Of a DNA stretch of 64,000 nucleotides, positions 22,072 to 60,039 are shown piece by piece. The stretch's first letter is position 1. The number at the start of each line of letters is the position of its first letter. The notes under the pieces were generated by a model that made no database searches, was not told the origin of the DNA, and saw only the letters and a list, made by a program, of their open reading frames with translations. Origin of the DNA: a virus; the UHGV virus genome UHGV-0180032; one strand, written 5' to 3'. The translations under genes were made by a program, and so were the position numbers.

Positions 22072-22107
22072 AGATATATATTACCTTAGTGAGATTACGC
22101 TGTAATC
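22072..22107 (+). promoter_or_regulatory. phage promoter motif (AGATATATATTACCTTAGTGAG) plus dyad gattac-N5-gtaatc
   Basis: One of five copies of the motif; contains TATATTAC; sits ~40 nt upstream of ATG 22145. Confidence 0.45.
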
Positions 22108-30327: not shown

Positions 30328-30366
30328 GATATATATTACCTAGGTGAGAGAATTACGTAATACTCA
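30328..30366 (+). promoter_or_regulatory. phage promoter motif (AGATATATATTACCTAGGTGAG) plus palindrome ATTACGTAAT
   Basis: Second copy of motif; 10-bp perfect palindrome 30352-30361; ~30 nt upstream of ATG 30397. Confidence 0.45.
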
Positions 30367-36910: not shown

Positions 36911-36940
36911 GATAGATATTATCAAAGGGAGACTGTCAGT
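36911..36940 (+). promoter_or_regulatory. degenerate copy of phage promoter motif (GATAGATATTATC)
   Basis: Resembles the AGATAGATATTACC copy at 57829; start of a low-GC island. Confidence 0.3.
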
Positions 36941-49569: not shown

Positions 49570-49609
49570 AACCTCTACCTTCGGGTAGAGGTTTTCTTCT
49601 TTTTATTTT
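49570..49609 (+). terminator. rho-independent terminator
   Basis: stem aacctctacc/ggtagaggtt with ttcg loop, then a T-run. Confidence 0.75.
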
Positions 49610-49653: not shown

Positions 49654-50307
49654 ATGGAACCACTACGTTTAATGACCAGAACGCTACTGATTCCTATCTG
49701 GGAATTGAAGCTTACCCCATTGCCTGCCTCTAATGGGGAGTTCATCGATTTTATTAAAGACGAAGAATTTGTGTTGACGGCTTTCCAGGAGACGCTGCAT
49801 CGTTACTATAATGCGGTGCCTTTATCTGGCGGATTAGATTGCCCTGGTGTAGAAGGGAGTACGTCTGCGTTAATCGCAGAGTGTTTAGAACAGAAAGGAA
49901 TTGGGGTTGGGAAAGGTCGGGTTTATGTGGACGCTGATAAACTGAGGAGTTACCAGATTGAGCTGACGTTTCAGATAAGAAGATTACTTACCCAGTACGG
50001 TCTTTTCTCAATTAACTGTAAGGTTGATGACGTACGGATGTTAGACCACGGTTTTACCACCACCCTCAAAACTTGTCGCGGTAAAAGATTCGTACAGTTT
50101 GCGTGGTGGGTCCCGGTATTGCGTGGTGAGAGAAAAACGGTGGAGGGGTTGTACGGCTGGGCGCTATGGAGCGAGGTTCCAGTAAATAAACTCGATGCGG
50201 TTATTCCAAAGCACCGAAACGTTCCGCTTAGCAGTTTATTTACTTCCGGCGAGAACACTACGTGGGCTGAATTCGTTAATAACGTTATGTCAATTGGGGA
50301 ACAATAA
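49654..50307 (+). CDS. hypothetical protein (217 aa)
   Basis: ATG with GGAG 7 nt upstream. Confidence 0.65.
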   Translation: MEPLRLMTRTLLIPIWELKLTPLPASNGEFIDFIKDEEFVLTAFQETLHRYYNAVPLSGGLDCPGVEGSTSALIAECLEQKGIGVGKGRVYVDADKLRSYQIELTFQIRRLLTQYGLFSINCKVDDVRMLDHGFTTTLKTCRGKRFVQFAWWVPVLRGERKTVEGLYGWALWSEVPVNKLDAVIPKHRNVPLSSLFTSGENTTWAEFVNNVMSIGEQ

Positions 50308-50783
50308 TGCAGCAGTTAGATATTACTGAAGACAAAATCTCCGCTAAATTTCCACAATTACGTGAATACATCAAGGACTTAAACTCGATACGCGAATCAC
50401 CTGTTCGCATTACCTTAGCGGTAGAAGACGATATTACGCACGGTATTGCGATTTGGGAACCGGGTAATCTTATCTATTTGGTGGTGGCGGAAGGTTCTCG
50501 GCGTTTCGGTGTGGGTTCGTTCTTATTGCAGTACGTTCAGTTAAATTCCGATCGTCAAATGGTGACGTGTCGTGTCCACCCATCGAACATTGACGGTCTG
50601 TGTTTCTTTTCGAAAAAAGGCTACCAGATTGACCGTTGGTATATCGCCAGCGACTCTCGTCGGTATTTTCGTATGACGAACGGTAACGTTGTTTCGTCAT
50701 ACGCCCCGCCGGAAGAAGGATATTTGGTGGATTTTATCGAAAACACGCCCATCTTTCTCTCTGTTGCGGATAAAATTTATTAA
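50307..50783 (+). CDS. GNAT-family N-acetyltransferase
   Basis: GNAT motif A-like SRRFGVGSFLLQYV and motif B-like NIDGLCFFSKKGYQ. Confidence 0.6.
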   Translation: MQQLDITEDKISAKFPQLREYIKDLNSIRESPVRITLAVEDDITHGIAIWEPGNLIYLVVAEGSRRFGVGSFLLQYVQLNSDRQMVTCRVHPSNIDGLCFFSKKGYQIDRWYIASDSRRYFRMTNGNVVSSYAPPEEGYLVDFIENTPIFLSVADKIY

Positions 50784-50799
50784 CCGTTGAGAGTCTAAA

Positions 50800-51279
50800 A
50801 TGATACGTGTCGAGTATGAGACGCGGTGCTTAGAAGACAATCGAGCAAAAGCATTACGTTGTGTTGAAATTGTCCCCGCACACGAACTGGATATTCAAGC
50901 TGGTAAGGTTCGGGGCGTTCCGGTTAAGATCGTACAACATAGCCATTGTTCGCAATATAAAGAGAAAGCTGTCCCAGTAGTACGTTCCAGTAAACGAGAA
51001 GACTTTTCAGAACTCCGCAAGTGTTTTCAACGACACTACCGTCGGAGTAAATGGAAAGTGTTGGTATTAATGTTAGTCGACGATTTCATTAAAGACCTGG
51101 TTTGGGAAGAAGTGCTTAAAGAGCGTGGTTTTCAACCCAAACCGTTCTCGTATCACTGGGAACGTTTCAAAAAGAAATACCACGAGTCATTGCGTTGGTC
51201 TCCGAACACCCGGAATATGATGCCGCGTTTGGAATCAATGCCTTGGCTTCGTGTTTATCTCGATGAGGTAAACAGATGA
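50800..51279 (+). CDS. hypothetical basic protein (159 aa)
   Basis: ORF with SD-like upstream sequence. Confidence 0.6.
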   Translation: MIRVEYETRCLEDNRAKALRCVEIVPAHELDIQAGKVRGVPVKIVQHSHCSQYKEKAVPVVRSSKREDFSELRKCFQRHYRRSKWKVLVLMLVDDFIKDLVWEEVLKERGFQPKPFSYHWERFKKKYHESLRWSPNTRNMMPRLESMPWLRVYLDEVNR

Positions 51280-51665
51280 AACGTCTTATTACTCCATTTC
51301 TAATGTTACTTTCGTTTTCTGTATTAGCGGATTTTAAACCATTCGATATCAGTCGTTACGAACCCGCTGTTCCTGGCGATAAACCGGTTGTGTTTAAAGC
51401 AGATGACCAACCCGTCACTGCGGTTCAAAACGATGAGTTTGCAGTGGTGAATTACGGCAAAACGGACTTATGCCCTGCGGGTGGATTTTATCTGGTGAAC
51501 ATCAAACGCCGAACTTATCAGTTTGTTGATCCAGGTAGCTGCTCTGCAATGGTTAAGGTGACGTTAGAAACCGTACCTTACACGAATAAAAACATTAATA
51601 TACAACGTTTAACCTTTTATGCGGGTGATGAAATCACAGCACGTTATCCGTTATACGGGTATTAG
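51276..51665 (+). CDS. putative secreted/periplasmic protein (129 aa)
   Basis: N-terminal signal-peptide-like MKRLITPFLMLLSFSVLA followed by DF. Confidence 0.6.
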   Translation: MKRLITPFLMLLSFSVLADFKPFDISRYEPAVPGDKPVVFKADDQPVTAVQNDEFAVVNYGKTDLCPAGGFYLVNIKRRTYQFVDPGSCSAMVKVTLETVPYTNKNINIQRLTFYAGDEITARYPLYGY

Positions 51666-51689
51666 TGATTAGCCCCCCACGGAGTTCGT

Positions 51690-52325
51690 ATGTCTTTTGT
51701 AATTGATTTCGACGTTGGCCACAGACAGAACTTACTTAATCTCGTTAGTTATTGTAACAGCGACAGTGTACGGAAAAAGCTTTCGGCTGAAAAGGTAGAC
51801 GTTACGCTCGTCGGTGCCCCAACACCGGAAGGACGCTATAAGGTAAAGTTAACGAACCGTAACGACATAAACGATGCGGTACTGATTACCTACACAAAGC
51901 TTCAACTGAACGACTTCCTTGAGATTCCTGCCAAGTATCTGGATTGGTTTGATTTCGAAAACGGTCAACCTAAGAACTACGATACGTGGGCAGCTTCCGC
52001 TAAAGTCGCCGTAGAGAAAATGTGCCAAGACCGAGGTATGGGATATCGCGCTTGGGACACCGGTTCACAGTGCCACATTGAGTTTGACGAGTCTATCGAA
52101 CGCTATGTGGTTGTCTACGAGTGCGACTCTTTTATTTATAGTGCGAGAAACCGATTCATCTTACCCCTACACTTAGGGCAGGTGATTAACGACACGACAT
52201 TAGACGGTCTTGATTACAATAACGAACTGAACAAGAAACCATTGGCGGATTTGGACGGTGAGTTAGAAGTGTGGATGGGTCAGGCGTTGGTTGAGACAGT
52301 GGTCTTAAGCGGCCTGGAGATGTAA
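51690..52325 (+). CDS. hypothetical protein (211 aa)
   Basis: ATG with GGAG upstream; terminator follows. Confidence 0.65.
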   Translation: MSFVIDFDVGHRQNLLNLVSYCNSDSVRKKLSAEKVDVTLVGAPTPEGRYKVKLTNRNDINDAVLITYTKLQLNDFLEIPAKYLDWFDFENGQPKNYDTWAASAKVAVEKMCQDRGMGYRAWDTGSQCHIEFDESIERYVVVYECDSFIYSARNRFILPLHLGQVINDTTLDGLDYNNELNKKPLADLDGELEVWMGQALVETVVLSGLEM

Positions 52326-52337
52326 TAGTAACGGTGG

Positions 52338-52379
52338 GTAGAGAGAGCTTTCGGGCTCTCTCTACTTTTCTTTTTTTTC
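52338..52379 (+). terminator. rho-independent terminator
   Basis: stem gtagagagagc/gctctctctac followed by a 14-nt T-run. Confidence 0.8.
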
Positions 52380-52407
52380 ATTATCGACGGTCTTTATGGA
52401 GGTGACC

Positions 52408-52962
52408 ATGAAAGAATATAAAATCGCGATTATCGGGTCTCGAGAAACACCGGAAGACGTTATGCAGGAAATGTTAGACACGTTACGGGAAGGGTTTCGA
52501 ATCTTACGAAAGAAAGGTTACACGATTACCACCCGTTCTGGAGGGTGTTATAAAGGCCCAGACCAACTTCAGTTCATGTTAGCGCGTACCGAGGACGTTA
52601 AGAGCGTTTGTTATCTGCCGGATGAAAAGAAAATGTGGTTAGGGAAAATACACCCTAAGGTAGAGTTCCGTTATATCCCACAAGACGTGCAGTACCGAGC
52701 CGTTGTTGCTTCACTTCACCCAAACCCAGATAAGCTCTCACCGATTGCCTGGGCGTTACACGGTCGTAATCTGAACATCATCGCAGGTGACTGCTTAGAC
52801 GAACCGGTAGATGCAGTCTATTACTTTAGCGACCACGACAAACACGGAAACGCAAAAGGTGGTACTGCGATGGGTGTAAAATACGCGAAGTCAATCGACG
52901 TTCCTTGTTACTACCATACCGCCGATCGGGATAAGTGGTTAGAAAGTCTTCGTTTATTATGA
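52408..52962 (+). CDS. SLOG/DprA-like Rossmann-fold protein
   Basis: KIAIIGSRETP and TITTRSGGCYKGPDQ resemble the DprA/Smf GSR and SGGA.GID motifs; ATG 52408 with GGAGG upstream. Confidence 0.5.
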   Translation: MKEYKIAIIGSRETPEDVMQEMLDTLREGFRILRKKGYTITTRSGGCYKGPDQLQFMLARTEDVKSVCYLPDEKKMWLGKIHPKVEFRYIPQDVQYRAVVASLHPNPDKLSPIAWALHGRNLNIIAGDCLDEPVDAVYYFSDHDKHGNAKGGTAMGVKYAKSIDVPCYYHTADRDKWLESLRLL

Positions 52963-52998
52963 ACTTGACTTTAACCGTTTTACAAAGGAAATCTCGAT

Positions 52999-53883
52999 AT
53001 GCGTCGTAGTTGGATTGGCCAACAGGTGGGACACGAGTCTCGCGATCGTACCGACTCTTCTGCCTCGTATGGCCACCAGGTCTATTTGGAAATTATCGGT
53101 TTAGTGAACAACCGGTTACACGATGCTAAACGTGTTGTCACCGGCAAAATGAAAACGATGAAAGAAGACGCTGACCGATTAGAAGATCGGTTGAAAGACG
53201 TCAAAACGTTTTCTGCCAAAGTGGTTCCTGCGGGCACCTGGTGTGCGCGTGTGTGTTACGAAGACGTTCCTGATTTAAAAGAATGTCTTAAGTTAGTCGA
53301 TTCCGTAAACGGGTTCGAGGCGGCTGCGAAGAAATTCCTGGTTGTGACTAACCCGATGGCTATCGGCCCTAAAGAAGTTCACCGTAAAGTTGAAGACGGG
53401 ATGTTAAAAGAGTTGAGCTACTCCAGTAGTTCAGCGATTCACCGTGCGATGGGGTATATCCCTAATCTGATGGGAACGGAAGTTACTGCGTATCCGTTAG
53501 CAGGAAACGTCTACGTCGTTACGCAGGGTGAACTGGGTAAAAGTAAGACCACGTTCGGTATCGGTAACGGCGGAATGTATAAAGACACCATTGCCGCACT
53601 CACCGAGCGTGAATGTCACCAGGCGCTAAAAGCGGTGCGTAAGATTGCAGACATCATGGAATCTCGCAACGCGAAAAACGGACTTTTTGGCTACAGCGGT
53701 ATTTACCAAGAAGCTGAAAAGATTAAAGATAAAATGTACAAAGTCGATCGGGATGAAATCTCCGAGGTTAAACGCGCTTACAAAAACGTTATTAAGTTGG
53801 AAGACGCGGTGACCACTGCACTCGACCGAGTAGCGGATGGGTTGTTATCCTGGGTGAAAGCGACGATCAAAGCAAACGAGTAA
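52999..53883 (+). CDS. hypothetical protein, tandem paralog A (294 aa)
   Basis: Shares with 53890..55023 the pattern W..KVC.ED.P..K.C, AYP..GNV.VV, GY.GIY.E, YKN...LEDA.TT.L.RVA.GLL.W. Confidence 0.65.
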   Translation: MRRSWIGQQVGHESRDRTDSSASYGHQVYLEIIGLVNNRLHDAKRVVTGKMKTMKEDADRLEDRLKDVKTFSAKVVPAGTWCARVCYEDVPDLKECLKLVDSVNGFEAAAKKFLVVTNPMAIGPKEVHRKVEDGMLKELSYSSSSAIHRAMGYIPNLMGTEVTAYPLAGNVYVVTQGELGKSKTTFGIGNGGMYKDTIAALTERECHQALKAVRKIADIMESRNAKNGLFGYSGIYQEAEKIKDKMYKVDRDEISEVKRAYKNVIKLEDAVTTALDRVADGLLSWVKATIKANE

Positions 53884-53889
53884 ATTATC

Positions 53890-55023
53890 ATGTCAACGTT
53901 AGATAGCGACTTAGAAGTGCTTTGTGACGATTACGACCGACTCGTAGCGTTAGAATCCATTGGAGTAAAAGATAATTATCCGGCTATCGTTGCTATCCGT
54001 AAACGTTGGCTTTTGGATGATGTGGTTGTTGCGTCAGAGTCTGCGGCCATGATGCACCGTGCACAGTTTTTGTCAGACACGGAACCTGATAAAGGGATAG
54101 GCAAAGCGGCGGCGCGACTCACCGGACGTGCGGTTCGTGGCGTAAGTCGGGTAGCAGGACGTGCTGCCAGTGCAGGTGCAAAAGCATCCGCGAACTTTGC
54201 AGGTAAACATTCCAAACAACTTGCTCTACGTTTTGTGGATTTTGCTGAAGCTGCCGGTAAAGAAGTCATTAAGGAATTAAAAGAAGCGACGTCTAAAGCG
54301 ACGACCTTAGAACGCAAACTGCAAAAGTTAAATGCACGTTTAAGTTTAATCGGTGACAAAGACACCTTAAAACCGGTTGACTGCGACACGGGAAGCTGGA
54401 CGACCAAAGTTTGTTTAGAAGACAAACCTAACGTAAAAGCGTGTATTGAGTTCAGTAAGAACCTGAGCGCAATGGATGCGATGGTCAACGAGTATACCGT
54501 TAAAACGCGCACCATTATCGGTAAGAGCAAGAAAGTTACTGAGAGTGGCTTGGAGAAAGTAGGCCGGTCGACGAACTGGGCGATTAAACGTAGTGCAGGG
54601 TTGTTCGGTATTATCGATCCGTTTAAAACGGTGAAAGCGTATCCGTGGCCAGGTAACGTGGTGGTCGTTGAACACGACAACGGTAAGATTGAGTGGGCGA
54701 TTGCCCGTGATGGTGATTTTGGCCACACAATCAAATCTCTGAACTTACACGAAATCGGTTCAGCTCTCGAAGCCGTTGAAAAAATTATCCGAGCTTTACG
54801 TCAGCGTGGTACGAAGCGACGTAGCGTTGGTTATACCGGTATTTACGATGAAGTTCAGCGAATGAAAAAAGAGCTGAAGTCGTTAGACGGTCGTGAGTTA
54901 CGTGACGCTACCGTTCGGTATAAGAACGCACTGCGTTTAGAAGATGCGTTTACTACCTCGTTAGTGCGTGTTGCGGAAGGCTTACTGGAATGGTGCAGGT
55001 TGTCGCTGATTGAGGTTAAATAA
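53890..55023 (+). CDS. hypothetical protein, tandem paralog B (377 aa)
   Basis: Paralogous C-terminal ~220 aa to 52999..53883. Confidence 0.65.
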   Translation: MSTLDSDLEVLCDDYDRLVALESIGVKDNYPAIVAIRKRWLLDDVVVASESAAMMHRAQFLSDTEPDKGIGKAAARLTGRAVRGVSRVAGRAASAGAKASANFAGKHSKQLALRFVDFAEAAGKEVIKELKEATSKATTLERKLQKLNARLSLIGDKDTLKPVDCDTGSWTTKVCLEDKPNVKACIEFSKNLSAMDAMVNEYTVKTRTIIGKSKKVTESGLEKVGRSTNWAIKRSAGLFGIIDPFKTVKAYPWPGNVVVVEHDNGKIEWAIARDGDFGHTIKSLNLHEIGSALEAVEKIIRALRQRGTKRRSVGYTGIYDEVQRMKKELKSLDGRELRDATVRYKNALRLEDAFTTSLVRVAEGLLEWCRLSLIEVK

Positions 55024-55490
55024 TGCGCATCACTATTATTCTCAAACCCGACAGTAAATACGGAAAGTTATACGGCGACCAGGTACTCAAACTGCACAAC
55101 ATGTTGTTCGCAGAAGAGAAGGTGCGTATTAGTCAGTTAACTGGACGTGATACGTTCAACCCCATCGAACGTTTAGAAGAGATTTGGCCTCAAGATTATC
55201 TCTGTGCGTGTGCGGTGGGTGACAACGAACAGCTTCTGGGTTTTATGACGTTCTCATTGGGTTCTTGCTCAAAAGACACGTTTGTTTACATCGGGAATTA
55301 CTATGTGATTCCTGAAGCACGCTCTCAAGGGGTAGGGCGTGCGCTTATGGACAAAGTCCGTGAATACGGAAAGTCCAAAGGTTGTGGTTGGATGAGTCTG
55401 GATGTGTTAGACAACAACGTTAAAGCTATCTCCTTGTATGAGAAAATGGGATTCCGTACCGAATGCAGGGAAATGATAAAGGAAATCTAA
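55023..55490 (+). CDS. GNAT-family N-acetyltransferase
   Basis: ARSQGVGRALMDKV (R-x-x-G-x-G/A) and NNVKAISLYEKMGF motifs. Confidence 0.65.
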   Translation: MRITIILKPDSKYGKLYGDQVLKLHNMLFAEEKVRISQLTGRDTFNPIERLEEIWPQDYLCACAVGDNEQLLGFMTFSLGSCSKDTFVYIGNYYVIPEARSQGVGRALMDKVREYGKSKGCGWMSLDVLDNNVKAISLYEKMGFRTECREMIKEI

Positions 55491-55491
55491 A

Positions 55492-56124
55492 ATGGCTGCA
55501 AGATTCGTACCGTTTCATGACGGGTCTAGATATACTTTTGGTGTAGAGCGTTACGCTGTGGGTTTTCGTCCTGGTTGGAGAGTGGTACGGATCGATAAAG
55601 CGTGTTGGTGTTTACCGACCGGTATTTTTGATTACTTTACGCCTGAAGCTTTAACGCGGTTTGTTTCTCTGGGTTCTCCCACGCAACGTGCTGCGTGGGA
55701 AAAGAATATTCGTTGCCGTTATTTGGGTAAAACACGAAACGCGACGGTACGCGGTGTTTATCACGTAGGAAGCCGTTGGTTACACGTTGAGCCAACACAC
55801 CACCGTTGTGCGGTCACGCCCTTTAACGGTGAATATCACGGTCAGGTGTACACGGGGTTACATTTTGCGTTCCCGGATAACCCTGACCTTAATTATTTTC
55901 TGGCTACCCCGAAAGACGTTACATTAGCCACGTTCTATAAATACCTTTTGTTCTATCCTGCCTACGTCGTTGCAGAATACGAACACAAAGCATTTCCTCT
56001 GCCTTACGGTAGAGACAGGAGATTAGCAGGATGTTCTATCGAGAACTTCAGCAATACACCGACGCTCTCCGAAAAGCGACCATTGATGCTCACAACAACC
56101 TCAGAGATGTCGTTAGCGTTATAG
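55492..56124 (+). CDS. hypothetical Cys/His/Trp-rich protein (210 aa; 3' end uncertain)
   Basis: ATG immediately after upstream stop; last 94 nt overlap next gene in another frame. Confidence 0.5.
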   Translation: MAARFVPFHDGSRYTFGVERYAVGFRPGWRVVRIDKACWCLPTGIFDYFTPEALTRFVSLGSPTQRAAWEKNIRCRYLGKTRNATVRGVYHVGSRWLHVEPTHHRCAVTPFNGEYHGQVYTGLHFAFPDNPDLNYFLATPKDVTLATFYKYLLFYPAYVVAEYEHKAFPLPYGRDRRLAGCSIENFSNTPTLSEKRPLMLTTTSEMSLAL

Positions 56125-56402
56125 AACAGTGTTCGGATGTATTGTATGCGGAAACGATTGAAACGCCAACCCGCGACGGTGTGAAATCGCTCCAGCTACA
56201 CGTTTGTAGTAAACACGGCAGTCTGTCGTTAAACTTCCGTGTAGGTTTAGATTATTACATGGTTCGTAAGAGCTATTTAAGTTGTGACGGTGACCTCTAT
56301 CCGGTTGTCTGGAACAACGATTATTCTAAGTTTGTTTATCCACTTGAAGAACACCGACGCACGGTTTATGAATTTGTGAAAGCTGTTCTCGAGGGGTTCT
56401 AA
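56031..56402 (+). CDS. hypothetical protein (123 aa)
   Basis: ATG with AGGAGA upstream. Confidence 0.6.
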   Translation: MFYRELQQYTDALRKATIDAHNNLRDVVSVIEQCSDVLYAETIETPTRDGVKSLQLHVCSKHGSLSLNFRVGLDYYMVRKSYLSCDGDLYPVVWNNDYSKFVYPLEEHRRTVYEFVKAVLEGF

Positions 56403-56415
56403 AGAGGGTATTGTG

Positions 56416-57021
56416 ATGTCAGAGATGATTCTCGACTCATTACTGCTGATTACGGTGGCGTATATCAACAAAACCGGTAAGCTACCAAAGCGTGGGGTGA
56501 CGATTGAACGGGAGGGGTTTAAGCACCGCTACCCGTTAACGAAAGTTCTCGATTTGGCAGCGCGGTTAGCGAAGATGCGTAGACCGACGTCAGACGCAGC
56601 ACCGAAGTACGTCTTAGTGGTACTCCAACGTGCGATTTCTGAAGTTCGTCGTGCGCGTCGTCGTGCCTCGTTTCGCTTTTATCCAAACTCTACGCAACAG
56701 GTTGTGGGGGTCTATAACGAAATGGTTGTTGATTTACGTACCGAACACTGTAACGTTACAGGACTTGCGTATAACCGCCTCAAACGCATTCTGGACGACT
56801 CAGACGCGTTTACCACACCGCAAGAAGGTCAAGCGGCTTTAGCGCTTCTACGGGGCGCTGAGCTCGTTATTGTGGACACCGCAGTACAGGCCGCAAGAAT
56901 GCAGCACTATCTTGCTAAGCAAGGGTTAGTTTTACTGTGTGTACCGTCTGCACAGGCTGCTAATCTTACCGCACCGGAAACGTCAGAAGTGTGGAGTGGT
57001 CCAATTGTTGACCATCAATAA
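56416..57021 (+). CDS. hypothetical protein (201 aa)
   Basis: ATG 56416 with AGAGGG upstream; terminator follows. Confidence 0.6.
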   Translation: MSEMILDSLLLITVAYINKTGKLPKRGVTIEREGFKHRYPLTKVLDLAARLAKMRRPTSDAAPKYVLVVLQRAISEVRRARRRASFRFYPNSTQQVVGVYNEMVVDLRTEHCNVTGLAYNRLKRILDDSDAFTTPQEGQAALALLRGAELVIVDTAVQAARMQHYLAKQGLVLLCVPSAQAANLTAPETSEVWSGPIVDHQ

Positions 57022-57028
57022 AACCTTA

Positions 57029-57063
57029 CCCCTACCTCACGGTAGGGGCGGGTTTCTTTTTTA
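57029..57063 (+). terminator. rho-independent terminator
   Basis: stem cccctacc/ggtagggg followed by gggtttcttttttatc. Confidence 0.7.
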
Positions 57064-57159
57064 TCCTAAAATTTATTACAACCAATAGCTATTATGTGAA
57101 CGCCGGTATGGAATAAAGAAGTATCGGTTTAAATTTTTGTGCGTAAAGGTAAAACAATA

Positions 57160-57783
57160 ATGCTTAAGACAGTGTCTATTGATGGCCCTGACTTTTCTGG
57201 GAAATCGACGTTGTGCAAAATGGTAAAAGGTATGCTGGAATCTGCGGGGTTAAAGGTCTGCATCCGTAATCACCCTACGACGGAGACCGAAGCGGGTATC
57301 CGTGCACGCAGTTTAGTCATTCAGTCCGCAGCAAAAGCAAAAATTGCCGAAGCGATGTGCGACGATTTCCTTCACACATTAGACCATGTTGTTGACGATT
57401 ACGATGTTGTTATTTTCGACAGGTTCTGCCCCTCTACAGTCGTTTACCAGGGCGTCGACGGTAAAGACGAAGTTTTCCGACGTAAGCTAACGCGTCATTT
57501 CCACGCACCCGATTTGTACGTTTGGACGGACGTGGATTACGACGGCGCAGTAGCACGCTTTAAGAAACGGGTAGAAGAACAAGGTAAGAATTGGGACGAT
57601 GAAGTCCTTACCGTTAAGTATTTAAAAGACAGCCAAAGCTGGGAAGCGTTACGTGACCACTACCGTTTCGCACACCACATTCTCACTGAAGGCGGTTGTC
57701 TGCACCATTTATTACCCGTGAAGCAAGACGACGATTACCGTTTAAAAGCGGCTGAAATCGTTGCTTGTATTTTAGAGAATTAA
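57160..57783 (+). CDS. tmk: thymidylate (dTMP) kinase-like
   Basis: P-loop IDGPDFSGKST; DRF.PSTVVYQG matches the Tmk DR(Y/F)..S...YQG motif; ATG 57160. Confidence 0.7.
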   Translation: MLKTVSIDGPDFSGKSTLCKMVKGMLESAGLKVCIRNHPTTETEAGIRARSLVIQSAAKAKIAEAMCDDFLHTLDHVVDDYDVVIFDRFCPSTVVYQGVDGKDEVFRRKLTRHFHAPDLYVWTDVDYDGAVARFKKRVEEQGKNWDDEVLTVKYLKDSQSWEALRDHYRFAHHILTEGGCLHHLLPVKQDDDYRLKAAEIVACILEN

Positions 57784-57790
57784 TCACACA

Positions 57791-57826
57791 CCCCTACCTT
57801 CGGGTAGGGGGTTATTTAATTTTTTC
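57791..57826 (+). terminator. rho-independent terminator
   Basis: stem cccctacc/ggtagggg with ttcg loop, then a T-rich tail. Confidence 0.7.
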
Positions 57827-57828
57827 TC

Positions 57829-57866
57829 AGATAGATATTACCTTAGTGAGATTACGCTGTAATCTC
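57829..57866 (+). promoter_or_regulatory. phage promoter motif (AGATAGATATTACCTTAGTGAG) plus perfect inverted repeat GAGATTAC-GCT-GTAATCTC
   Basis: Near-identical over ~75 nt, including 5' UTR, to the copy at 22072; ~35 nt upstream of HTH gene ATG 57902. Confidence 0.5.
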
Positions 57867-58282: not shown

Positions 58283-58966
58283 ATGGCACCGAGAACTAAG
58301 AAAACCGAAGTTAAAGAAGCCGTAGAAAAACCGGTTGATACTAAGGAAGCGGAAGTTAAGCAGACTGAGCCTAGCAAGAAGCTTGCGCTTATGCCGCCTG
58401 CCACAGAAATACACGGGGATAAAATCTTAAGTTACACTCCGCGCGCGAGTTTAACGATCGATATTTACCATTACCCAGTATTCGACCTGTACACGCTTGT
58501 CTGTCGACTCGACGATGAGATACTGGCAGTCGTGCCAGGCATCCACAAAGAAAAACTGCTTACGGGTTCAGTCATTAGCGAGATTTTCCTGCGTTTGATG
58601 TTTAAATCAGACGATAAGATGATCAGCCAGATTGCTAGTAAATTGACTGACTTCTTTGTTGAGGCTTCAACGTGGTTAGGCTTTCACCCAACGGCTTATT
58701 TCGTTTTCGACACCAAAATGTTGTATGCTGAAATGGGTGATAGTGTTAAGTATCCTATCTTGCTTAATGAAGAAGTCGTTCCGTTTTCCCTTACCAGTCC
58801 TAACAAACATCTTCGCTTTCATCCGGCGTTAGAAAGCCTGATTGAATACAATCGGTTGGAAAAATATTACGCTTATCATCGCATGTTCTTTGAACTTCTG
58901 CGTGATAAATTAAGAGGAAAAGTTCCAGATTCTAGTGCGGCATTCACTAGTTCTAAGCTTTGGTAG
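58283..58966 (+). CDS. hypothetical protein (227 aa) with Lys/Glu-rich N-terminus
   Basis: ATG with AGGAG upstream; terminator follows. Confidence 0.65.
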   Translation: MAPRTKKTEVKEAVEKPVDTKEAEVKQTEPSKKLALMPPATEIHGDKILSYTPRASLTIDIYHYPVFDLYTLVCRLDDEILAVVPGIHKEKLLTGSVISEIFLRLMFKSDDKMISQIASKLTDFFVEASTWLGFHPTAYFVFDTKMLYAEMGDSVKYPILLNEEVVPFSLTSPNKHLRFHPALESLIEYNRLEKYYAYHRMFFELLRDKLRGKVPDSSAAFTSSKLW

Positions 58967-59052: not shown

Positions 59053-60039
59053 ATGGTATATCGTAAAACGATAGAAAGAACCTCTTCTGATTTAACCGTA
59101 GGACGCTTAGCCCGTAGAGATATTCGCAATCCTCAACTTCAGGAATGTTTAACGGGTCCCAACGGTGCGGTGATTCGTGAAGCGCTGTGCAATACCGAGC
59201 TGAATACGTTCTCTTTACAAAAAGGAAAAACAATCCAAGGGTTTATCATCACAAAACACATTTACGGTGACCCAACGTTACACTGTTTGTATATGCATGA
59301 AATTGTACCTGGGTGTTTGAACAAACTGAGCCTTCTATTGGTACTTGACTATACGGGTTTTACGTACCTTAACCGAATTGCCAGAGGTGTGGAAGAAATT
59401 GCCGAGCTTAACGATTTAGGGTTTAGACATACCCGCACAGCATATCGTTTAGGTACACGTACGTTATCGGATGTCACTTTACCGACGAACGTGAAGAACG
59501 TCTCCGGCGATTTCTATAAAGACTTAACCGGAGCACAACGTGAACAGCTCATGATGTTGTTTGGCACTAGCGTCGTTGAAAACATCAATGCTGACCCTGT
59601 ATCGCGTTCTCGACAAATAATGCCGCAAGTTGAAACATTGGTGGAGTTAGTGCGACACGTCAATCACTACACTTACGTTTGGATGGACGGTAATGACGTC
59701 GTGGGTGTGGTGCAAGTTAAATCACGTAATCTTAGTGAGTGCGAACTAAAAGCCATTGCGGTAAGTGAATCACATCGGGGTCGTGGGATTGGGCGTGCGT
59801 TGTTGTACCGTGCTTTACAGATTGCATCGACAACAGCAGCGCCATTAGAAATAGGGTGTTACAATAACAACCCAGCATTTAGACACCTGGCCGTAGATTT
59901 GTTTAAATTCCGTCCCTACGAGTACGAATTTGTTTTAGTGCGCGACGACGATGTCGTCAGTTGGGAGCGTCGGAAAAACCGCGTCGAGTTAGTGTTAGGC
60001 AACGAAATGTCATCGTTACAAGGCGGAATTAATGCATAA
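59053..60039 (+). CDS. two-domain protein with C-terminal GNAT acetyltransferase domain (328 aa)
   Basis: C-terminal SHRGRGIGRALLYRAL GNAT motif; ATG with AAGGAG upstream; overlaps Dam start. Confidence 0.6.
   Translation: MVYRKTIERTSSDLTVGRLARRDIRNPQLQECLTGPNGAVIREALCNTELNTFSLQKGKTIQGFIITKHIYGDPTLHCLYMHEIVPGCLNKLSLLLVLDYTGFTYLNRIARGVEEIAELNDLGFRHTRTAYRLGTRTLSDVTLPTNVKNVSGDFYKDLTGAQREQLMMLFGTSVVENINADPVSRSRQIMPQVETLVELVRHVNHYTYVWMDGNDVVGVVQVKSRNLSECELKAIAVSESHRGRGIGRALLYRALQIASTTAAPLEIGCYNNNPAFRHLAVDLFKFRPYEYEFVLVRDDDVVSWERRKNRVELVLGNEMSSLQGGINA

Follow-up and report, generated by a model that had tools for sequence, protein, structure and literature searches.

A conserved genome segment of an undescribed phiKZ-lineage jumbo phage pairs internal head protein genes with the gene of an acetyltransferase that has an orthologue in SPN3US heads

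Jumbo phages of the phiKZ type survive the first minutes of an infection, before their compartment has formed, by means of proteins carried in the capsid, and to our knowledge most of this cargo has no known activity. A capsid-packaged enzyme that is injected together with the DNA is known from phage T4, where Alt acts as an ADP-ribosyltransferase. The segment analyzed here lies at positions 49654-57783 of a 64,000-nucleotide stretch of the virus genome UHGV-0180032 (the whole stretch is referred to as the window) and contains a tandem pair of internal head protein genes followed by the gene of a GNAT acetyltransferase. It corresponds to genes 87-100 of the Salmonella jumbo phage SPN3US and belongs to an undescribed Enterobacteriaceae-associated phage of the phiKZ lineage with a genome of approximately 222 kb. 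The explanation that accounts best for all observations jointly, with a probability of roughly 0.7, is a gp87-gp100 counterpart that is organized in three transcription units, contains a head-cargo cassette, and would deliver the acetyltransferase with the DNA as T4 delivers Alt.

All virion locations used here come from the mass spectrometry of SPN3US (PMC10052503, Tables S2, S3, S5, and S6). The orthologue of the second internal head protein, gp94, is a head protein (approximately 48 spectra) for which a "possible cleavage" by gp245 at ALE-22, ARE-51, or AME-60 was proposed on the basis of gel migration and missing coverage (PMC10052503). The orthologue of the acetyltransferase, gp95, was found in the head in all replicates; wild-type virions yielded a mean of 41 spectra and tailless heads 32, and the protein had a coverage of 48-78%, an intact N-terminus, and no cleavage motif (PMC10052503). 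On the basis of spectral counts, a crude estimate puts gp94 and gp95 at a few to approximately 40 copies per head. Furthermore, gp97 is a low-abundance head protein and gp91 a tail protein; gp98, the kinase gp100 (approximately three spectra), and a third GNAT, gp104, were present in traces and classed as non-virion, and gp87-90, gp92, gp93, gp96, and gp99 were not detected in SPN3US virions (PMC10052503). Overall, 4 of the 13 genes of the segment (those starting at 51690, 53890, 55023, and 56031) have an orthologue that was detected in SPN3US virions.

Internal head proteins and the acetyltransferase gene behind them

Three adjacent genes form the center of the segment:

52999-53883, plus strand: IP1, a phiKZ-type internal head protein paralog of 294 amino acids (Pfam phiKZ_IP, PHROG 2497)
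53890-55023, plus strand: IP2, 377 amino acids, orthologue of SPN3US gp94 (Pfam phiKZ_IP, PHROG 2497)
55023-55490, plus strand: GNAT2, an acetyltransferase of 155 amino acids, orthologue of SPN3US gp95 (Pfam GNAT models)

A first-pass annotation, made from the sequence alone, had described the genes at 52999 and 53890 as tandem paralogs with a conserved cysteine pair, and this description holds: IP1 and IP2 are 33% identical over 248 residues (E = 5e-37) and share two cysteines spaced 11 residues apart, one of them invariant and the other nearly so. By profile, the paralogs belong to the internal head proteins of the phiKZ type. Both match PHROG 2497 ("internal head protein"), and the Pfam family PF12699 matches IP2 with 32.5 bits (cut-off 27) and IP1 with 25.2 bits, which is under the cut-off. 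IP2 is 59.6% identical to SPN3US gp94 and has relatives in 64 jumbo phages of Salmonella, Erwinia, Escherichia, Cronobacter, and Proteus. No further paralogs of the two proteins are encoded in the window.

An alignment of IP1 and IP2 with eight relatives revealed an N-terminal segment of approximately 45-50 residues with V-[A/G]-x-E as its constant end. The A/G-x-E part is invariant in all 10 aligned proteins (A-S-E-50 in IP2, G-H-E-13 in IP1) and fits both published motifs of prohead proteases, A-x-E in SPN3US and S/A/G-x-E in phiKZ. A W..VC.ED core and the C-terminal domain are kept across the paralogs and the eight relatives, and a Gly/Ala-rich linker is present in the IP2 lineage only. The IP1 protein of the window phage lacks the first approximately 35 residues of the conserved N-terminal segment. 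Within the linker of IP2, one contig (L010) carries an in-frame deletion of 33 nucleotides (11 residues; 54131-54157 of the window), which suggests that the linker is a low-complexity spacer that tolerates changes in length. An antisense open reading frame of 252 residues inside the IP2 gene (53976-54734, minus strand) is most likely an artefact that arises from the Gly/Ala-rich composition of the coding strand.

IP1 is dispensable. SPN3US lacks it altogether, and among six contigs of the window phage (L006-L011, 96-98% identical) the gene is intact in three, as it is in the window, and a pseudogene in the other three (approximately 97% identical), where 61 nucleotides of remnant sequence are left and the start codon ATG has become AAG. 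The loci at which this variation was seen are L006, L009, and L011 (4718-4868) as well as L007, L008, and L010. Two records filed as plasmids match the query in two pieces with 89-90% coverage, consistent with the same deletion of IP1. The intact alleles are constrained, with ratios of nonsynonymous to synonymous polymorphism (pN/pS) of 0.00-0.11. The intact allele of L008 has a synonymous divergence (pS) of 0.43 and is far more divergent than the remainder of the L008 genome. Near-identical strains with and without IP1 represent a natural experiment. The small gp93 of SPN3US (90 residues) was considered as a remnant of IP1 and rejected, given that phiEaH2 and Wellington contain both the small reading frame and IP1.

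The acetyltransferase assigned to 55023 in the first-pass annotation is supported by Pfam, with 68.3 bits for Acetyltransf_1 (cut-off 20.7) and scores above the cut-offs for Acetyltransf_7 and Acetyltransf_10 as well. The acetyl-CoA loop R-x-x-G-x-G/A is present as R-S-Q-G-V-G, the loop and a C-terminal tyrosine are invariant, and across 10 members of the clade the R, G, N, A, Y, and G positions do not vary. The stop codon of IP2 and the start codon of GNAT2 overlap by one nucleotide (TAATG) in the window and in SPN3US, and an internal head protein gene lies directly 5' of the GNAT gene in every relative examined, CR5 included. Tandem duplicates of the head-associated GNAT were observed in EC001 (L019, 2007-2965) and at locus L013 (8701-9673), and in CR5 the third GNAT of the region is duplicated in tandem (L018, 8662-10380); changes in GNAT copy number are therefore recurrent.

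A head acetyltransferase with catalytic motifs that is always encoded 3' of an internal head protein gene belongs to the few cargo proteins with a chemistry that can be guessed and tested. We know of no mention of the SPN3US head acetyltransferase outside a supplementary table, and a literature search for PDB 7DQG (the solved structure of another SPN3US GNAT, see below), SPN3US gp95, or a packaged acetyltransferase found no paper on any of them. The one testable lead that the segment offers is the pairing of an internal head protein with an acetyltransferase carried in the capsid; the rest of the segment is an ordinary orthologue of a known genome segment.

Conservation and source of the segment

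Nearly all long open reading frames of the window lie on a single strand, and the frames listed in the first-pass annotation are all found on the plus strand at the starts given there. The order of the genes matches that of SPN3US gp87-gp100 one for one (tblastn and annotation) and recurs in the Erwinia phages phiEaH2 and Wellington and the Cronobacter phage CR5, which represent three other genera (Erskinevirus, Wellingtonvirus, and Derbicusvirus, beyond the Seoulvirus SPN3US), and in two more distant metagenomic lineages. The proteins of the segment are 24-64% identical to their SPN3US orthologues and up to 67% identical to those of phiEaH2, and the flanking gp84 and RuvC proteins are 82-84% identical to SPN3US. 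A megablast search of the segment against 50,697 phage records gave no match, and relatives were seen at the protein level only. The segment is collinear and conserved in the clade, mixes virion and enzyme genes, and does not appear to be a loose accessory island. The truly accessory positions are IP1 and a slot in front of the kinase gene (see below).

Public assemblies contain the exact GNAT2 protein in 955 index blocks, and the contigs that carry it are 220-225 kb long. Copies with 97.5% identity have been filed as closed circular "plasmids" of 222 kb from Escherichia coli 98232 (urine) and Enterobacter ludwigii (gull); the two records are NZ_CP173450.1 and NZ_CP134650.1. These records suggest a jumbo phage that is widespread and able to persist in isolates kept in culture, and public assemblies appear to contain the undescribed lineage very often. 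Across the six contigs of the same phage the genes of the segment display pN/pS values of 0.03-0.17, that is, purifying selection; GNAT2 was held constant in this comparison by the way in which the contigs were selected. The gp87-like gene evolves fastest (24% identity to SPN3US gp87, pN/pS 0.155).

Remaining genes, transcription units, and signals

The other features of the segment and its borders are as follows:

49570-49593, plus strand: left edge of the segment; intrinsic terminator at the end of the preceding RuvC/gp86 unit, with a 10-bp stem, a UUCG loop, and a T-run
49654-50307, plus strand: gp87-like protein, 217 amino acids (PHROG 8034, E = 2.5e-9)
50307-50783, plus strand: GNAT1, 158 amino acids, orthologue of SPN3US gp88; its start overlaps the stop of the gp87-like gene (TAATG)
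50800-51279, plus strand: gp89-like protein, 159 amino acids, pI 9.7 (PHROG 9187, E = 2.5e-69)
51276-51665, plus strand: gp90-like secreted protein, 129 amino acids, with a predicted Sec-type signal peptide
51690-52325, plus strand: gp91-like protein, 211 amino acids, orthologue of a SPN3US tail protein (mass spectrometry)
52336-52367, plus strand: strong intrinsic terminator (14-bp stem) that splits unit 1 from unit 2
52408-52962 (mechanical reading frame from 52396), plus strand: gp92-like protein, 184 amino acids, a stand-alone Rossmann protein with a DprA-type SLOG fold (fold search)
55492-56124, plus strand: gp96-like protein, 210 amino acids, with a conserved TFYKYL motif
56031-56402, plus strand: gp97-like protein, 123 amino acids; 94-nucleotide overlap, in a different frame, with the 3' end of the 55492 gene
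56413-57021, plus strand: gp98-like protein, 202 amino acids, GTG start, orthologue of SPN3US gp98
57029-57048, plus strand: intrinsic terminator at the end of unit 2, followed by the empty "gp99 slot"
57160-57783 (mechanical reading frame from 57139), plus strand: thymidylate (dTMP) kinase, 207 amino acids, orthologue of SPN3US gp100 with 64% identity (Pfam)
57791-57810, plus strand: intrinsic terminator; right edge of the segment
59053-60039, plus strand, beyond the segment: GNAT3, 328 amino acids, GNAT domain at approximately residues 195-280, orthologue of gp104

The terminators that had been placed at 49570 and 57791 were recovered, each as a hairpin followed by a T-run, and because two further terminators lie between them the segment divides into three units: unit 1 (49654-52325) with the gp87-like, GNAT1, gp89-like, gp90-like, and gp91-like genes, unit 2 (52408-57021) with the genes of the SLOG protein, IP1, IP2, GNAT2, and the gp96-like, gp97-like, and gp98-like proteins, and unit 3 (57160-57783) with the kinase gene alone. 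The terminators at 49570-49593, 57029-57048, and 57791-57810 share a near-identical stem (CC[CT]CTACC ... GGTAG[AG]GG) with a UUCG-type loop, which looks like a reused terminator module. A scan for sigma-70 promoters found 16 sites where 14.2 were expected, a chance level that is to be expected because the phage has its own RNA polymerases. The sequence GATA[G/T]ATATTAYC, which includes TATATTAC, presumably the core of the phiKZ early promoter, was found eight times with up to two mismatches where 2.1 hits were expected. Four plus-strand sites (22073-22085, 30328-30340, 36911-36923, and 57830-57842) are intergenic and upstream of plus-strand reading frames, three of them shortly 3' of a terminator. 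Weaker variants, TTTATTTTAC and AAATTTATTAC, precede the genes at 49654 and 57160, and no clear variant was seen upstream of 52408.

Profile and fold searches upheld the GNAT, SLOG/DprA-like, signal peptide, and thymidylate kinase assignments of the first-pass annotation. The GNAT at 50307 is supported by orthology and by its loop: GNAT1 scores below the cut-off of Pfam Acetyltransf_7 (20 versus 27 bits) and far below those of its NCBIfam matches, but it is 59% identical to SPN3US gp88, matches PDB 7DQG with 208 bits and PHROG 7861 ("acetyltransferase") with E = 3.6e-69, and keeps an R-R-F-G-V-G loop. PDB 7DQG, deposited as a "putative acetyltransferase," is SPN3US gp88 (100% identical over 153 residues). 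The three GNATs claimed within 10 kb exist, span 9.7 kb, and are conserved in the clade, although the third one (at 59053) lies outside the segment. They are not recent paralogs of one another, an origin that was considered and rejected (BLASTP E > 0.07). A helix-turn-helix protein and a third GNAT are encoded downstream of the segment in SPN3US, phiEaH2, Wellington, and CR5 as well. An open reading frame of 227 residues just 3' of the segment (58283-58966) has no PHROG or Pfam match and no tblastn match in the SPN3US, phiEaH2, and Wellington segments; it is kept among strains with a pN/pS of 0.14.

The gp92-like protein consists of one Rossmann domain from end to end, with invariant G-S-R, S-G-G, and G-G-T motifs. 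A fold search assigned it to the DprA-type Rossmann (SLOG) fold, in agreement with what had been proposed for the gene at 52408, and the matches listed include DprA (13.5, 12.5, and 11.7), the Moco carrier protein (12.9), ShosA (12.7), YpsA (12.0), LOG enzymes (10-11), and the SLOG domain of ThsA (8.9). Sequence profiles do not match: no Pfam, NCBIfam, or PDB sequence match was obtained, also with a 21-sequence profile (PDB gave chance hits), and the label of PHROG 768 is the sole support at the sequence level for a DprA-like protein. Both the N-terminal SAM-like domain and the C-terminal winged helix of cellular DprA are absent, and the protein is filed as a DprA-like member of the SLOG superfamily, not as DprA. 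Homologues of 135-142 residues were suspected to be bacterial, which was ruled out by their position in the same phage gene order. Proteins of this kind have been suggested to be additional factors in single-stranded DNA binding or recombination (Iyer et al. 2021).

The secreted protein with a signal peptide that had been called at 51276 also stands. By inspection, its signal peptide MKRLITPFLMLLSFSVLA|DF starts with a basic n-region, continues with a hydrophobic core, and has small residues at -3 and -1, with a predicted cut at VLA|DF. All 18 homologues keep this arrangement, including the V-L-A and the D on the two sides of the cut, the hydrophobic N-terminus, and the Ala at -1. The model of the protein has low confidence for residues 1-20 and is otherwise a confident all-beta structure, for which no match among solved structures was found; two cysteines are invariant. 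The homologues are confined to the phage clade and always occupy the same gene position. On the strength of its N-terminus the gp90-like protein is predicted to be directed to the periplasm.

Two statements on the genes behind GNAT2 had to be revised. The product of the 55492 gene had been called rich in Cys, His, and Trp, and its composition (C5 H8 W4 in 210 residues) is a mild enrichment; no Cys or His is conserved among the orthologues, which rules out the richness as a hint of metal binding. The overlapping gene at 56031-56402 had been missed, and its gp97-like product is conserved over the full length and under purifying selection. Public records annotate either the gp96-like or the gp97-like gene and rarely both, and the phiEaH2 orthologue of gp96 is unannotated.

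The thymidylate kinase recognized earlier at 57160 is confirmed by Pfam (Thymidylate_kin, 63.6 bits, cut-off 27) and contains the P-loop G-P-D-F-S-G-K-S and F-D-R-F; its score for the NCBIfam equivalog is 52.2, below the cut-off of 83.25. The slot in front of the kinase gene (57049-57138) is empty in the window, contains gp99 in SPN3US, and holds unrelated reading frames in relatives. One contig of the window phage carries an orphan reading frame of 204 residues with its own terminator in this slot (L007, 8129-8743) with no Pfam, PHROG, or PADLOC match.

Explanations for a packaged acetyltransferase and comparison with known systems

The middle of unit 2 is best read as a head-cargo cassette that would deliver a ready-made acetyltransferase with the DNA. 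In such a cassette, IP2 would enter the prohead by means of its conserved N-terminal segment of approximately 50 residues, and the prohead protease would trim it at A-S-E-50. GNAT2, apparently without a propeptide, would be loaded at a low copy number, from a few to tens in each head, and probably through an interaction with IP2 or another core protein. The orthologue of GNAT2 is packaged in SPN3US, which makes it plausible that one acetyltransferase of the segment, that at 55023, reaches the cell as infection begins. It would exit together with the DNA and, using host acetyl-CoA, modify a target in the host by acetylation before phage genes are expressed.

Several observations weigh against this delivery model. 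The virion locations are transferred to the window phage from orthologues that are 40-60% identical, and exit from the capsid with the DNA is a proposal for gp94 and gp95 of SPN3US as well. Among solved structures, GNAT2 is closest to acetyltransferases for diamines/polyamines and streptothricin and not to protein acetyltransferases, and its best NCBIfam model, RimI, scores below the cut-off. In CR5, a gap of 52 nucleotides separates the internal head protein gene from the GNAT gene, and the translational coupling to IP2 that is assigned to GNAT2 in the window phage is thus not universal.

The relatives of GNAT2 invite a different role for a packaged enzyme, either in head assembly, where internal head proteins, their new N-termini, or the polyamines that accompany the DNA might be acetylated, or on host spermidine and putrescine after entry. 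Diamine acetyltransferase 2 (E = 5e-10), nourseothricin acetyltransferase, and a polyamine acetyltransferase are the best solved matches, models for acetyltransferases of aminoglycosides, streptothricin, and (PaiA-type) spermidine are among the NCBIfam matches, each under its cut-off, and both the position of the gene within a head-protein cassette and the presence of the orthologue in heads would fit. However, matches among small GNATs are poorly informative on the substrate, and in the alignment with SSAT2 the E of the L-E-D motif, which we take to be the general base of spermidine/spermine acetyltransferases, is replaced by G-N in the phage protein. Acetylated head peptides are not reported in the SPN3US literature that was searched, in which two papers lack the word "acetyl" altogether, and this role is considered rather doubtful. 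That gp95 is a cytoplasmic enzyme trapped in the head, encoded next to a head gene by chance, is very improbable. Its abundance is low (approximately 41 spectra versus 6,698 for the major capsid protein), it has neither a propeptide nor a cleavage site, and the authors of the SPN3US proteomics themselves consider that proteins with low counts may be trapped. Nevertheless, all replicates, both of virions after purification on two gradients and of tailless heads, contained gp95, with a normalized head to wild-type ratio of 1.1 and up to 78% coverage. Its level is tenfold above that of the known non-virion kinase and similar to that of the neighboring head protein gp94, and the adjacency of the two genes is kept across the clade.

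The first-pass annotation had viewed the whole segment as an accessory-looking block and had pointed to counter-defence and host takeover. Carried further, this view would have the GNATs and the SLOG protein neutralize Thoeris, CBASS, or toxin-antitoxin systems (for instance by nucleotide binding or as a ShosA-like mimic of an antitoxin). The proteins of the segment do diverge faster than the neighboring gp84 and RuvC (82-84%), IP1 and the pre-kinase slot are variable, EC001, CR5, and L013 carry tandem duplicates of GNATs, and host-modifying roles have been predicted for the GNATs of jumbo phages (Iyer et al. 2021). Yet metagenomic relatives and at least five genera keep the gene order, the segment contains a pair of head-protein paralogs, and four of its products are virion components in SPN3US. 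A PADLOC scan of nine proteins of the segment returned weak matches for the kinase fold only, and no anti-defence phenotype of any orthologue was found in the literature searched. An accessory island is therefore unlikely as an account of the segment as a whole, and what survives of the host-takeover idea is narrowed, with new evidence, to the capsid-packaged GNAT at 55023. The non-virion genes (the gp87-like gene, GNAT1, the SLOG protein, and the secreted protein) may still act in counter-defence, for which no specific support was obtained here.

The delivery model can be extended, tentatively, to a two-part module specific to SPN3US-like phages, in which the processed internal head protein would be the carrier and the uncleaved acetyltransferase would be ejected to acetylate a host protein or polyamine prior to transcription, as the first capsid-delivered acetylating effector. 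If this were true, the duplications of GNAT genes, the gain and loss of IP1, and the divergent IP1 allele would mark an arms race at this locus.

Compared with known systems, the segment is closest in layout to SPN3US, phiEaH2, Wellington, and CR5, which share the order gp87, GNAT, gp89, gp90, gp91, gp92, gp94, gp95, gp96, overlapping gp97, gp98, and gp100; relative to SPN3US, the window has a second internal head protein gene and lacks the small gp93 reading frame and gp99. The gp92-like protein resembles DprA/Smf and other SLOG proteins (YpsA, LOG, the Moco carrier protein, ShosA, and the SLOG domain of ThsA) and differs as a single domain of 184 residues without the flanking domains of DprA. 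IP1 and IP2 are like the inner-body proteins of phiKZ (PF12699; gp93-gp97) in profile, in their organization as tandem paralogs, and in the N-terminal S/A/G-x-E motif, with the head location assigned through the SPN3US orthologue. In contrast to an inner-body protein of phiKZ with 100-200 copies, SPN3US gp94 is of low abundance (tens of copies or fewer by spectral counts). No product annotated as an acetyltransferase is encoded in the 30 kb downstream of phiKZ gp094, a stretch that holds the internal head protein genes of that phage.

Two enzymes of other phages provide the nearest functional parallels. Rac, a GNAT of phiKMV-like phages, reportedly acetylates and inactivates the alpha subunit of the host RNA polymerase. 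Set beside the GNATs of the window by description only, it is likewise a small phage GNAT proposed to act early on host machinery; it differs in being expressed from the genome and not packaged, and phiKZ-like phages carry their own RNA polymerases. T4 Alt transfers ADP-ribose, whereas GNAT2 would transfer an acetyl group from acetyl-CoA, with an orthologue that is uncleaved in SPN3US and with an injection and a target that are so far proposals. The likeness to Alt lies in the combination of features: an enzyme of a host-modifying type, located in the head at low copy number, and encoded near internal proteins that are processed by the prohead protease.

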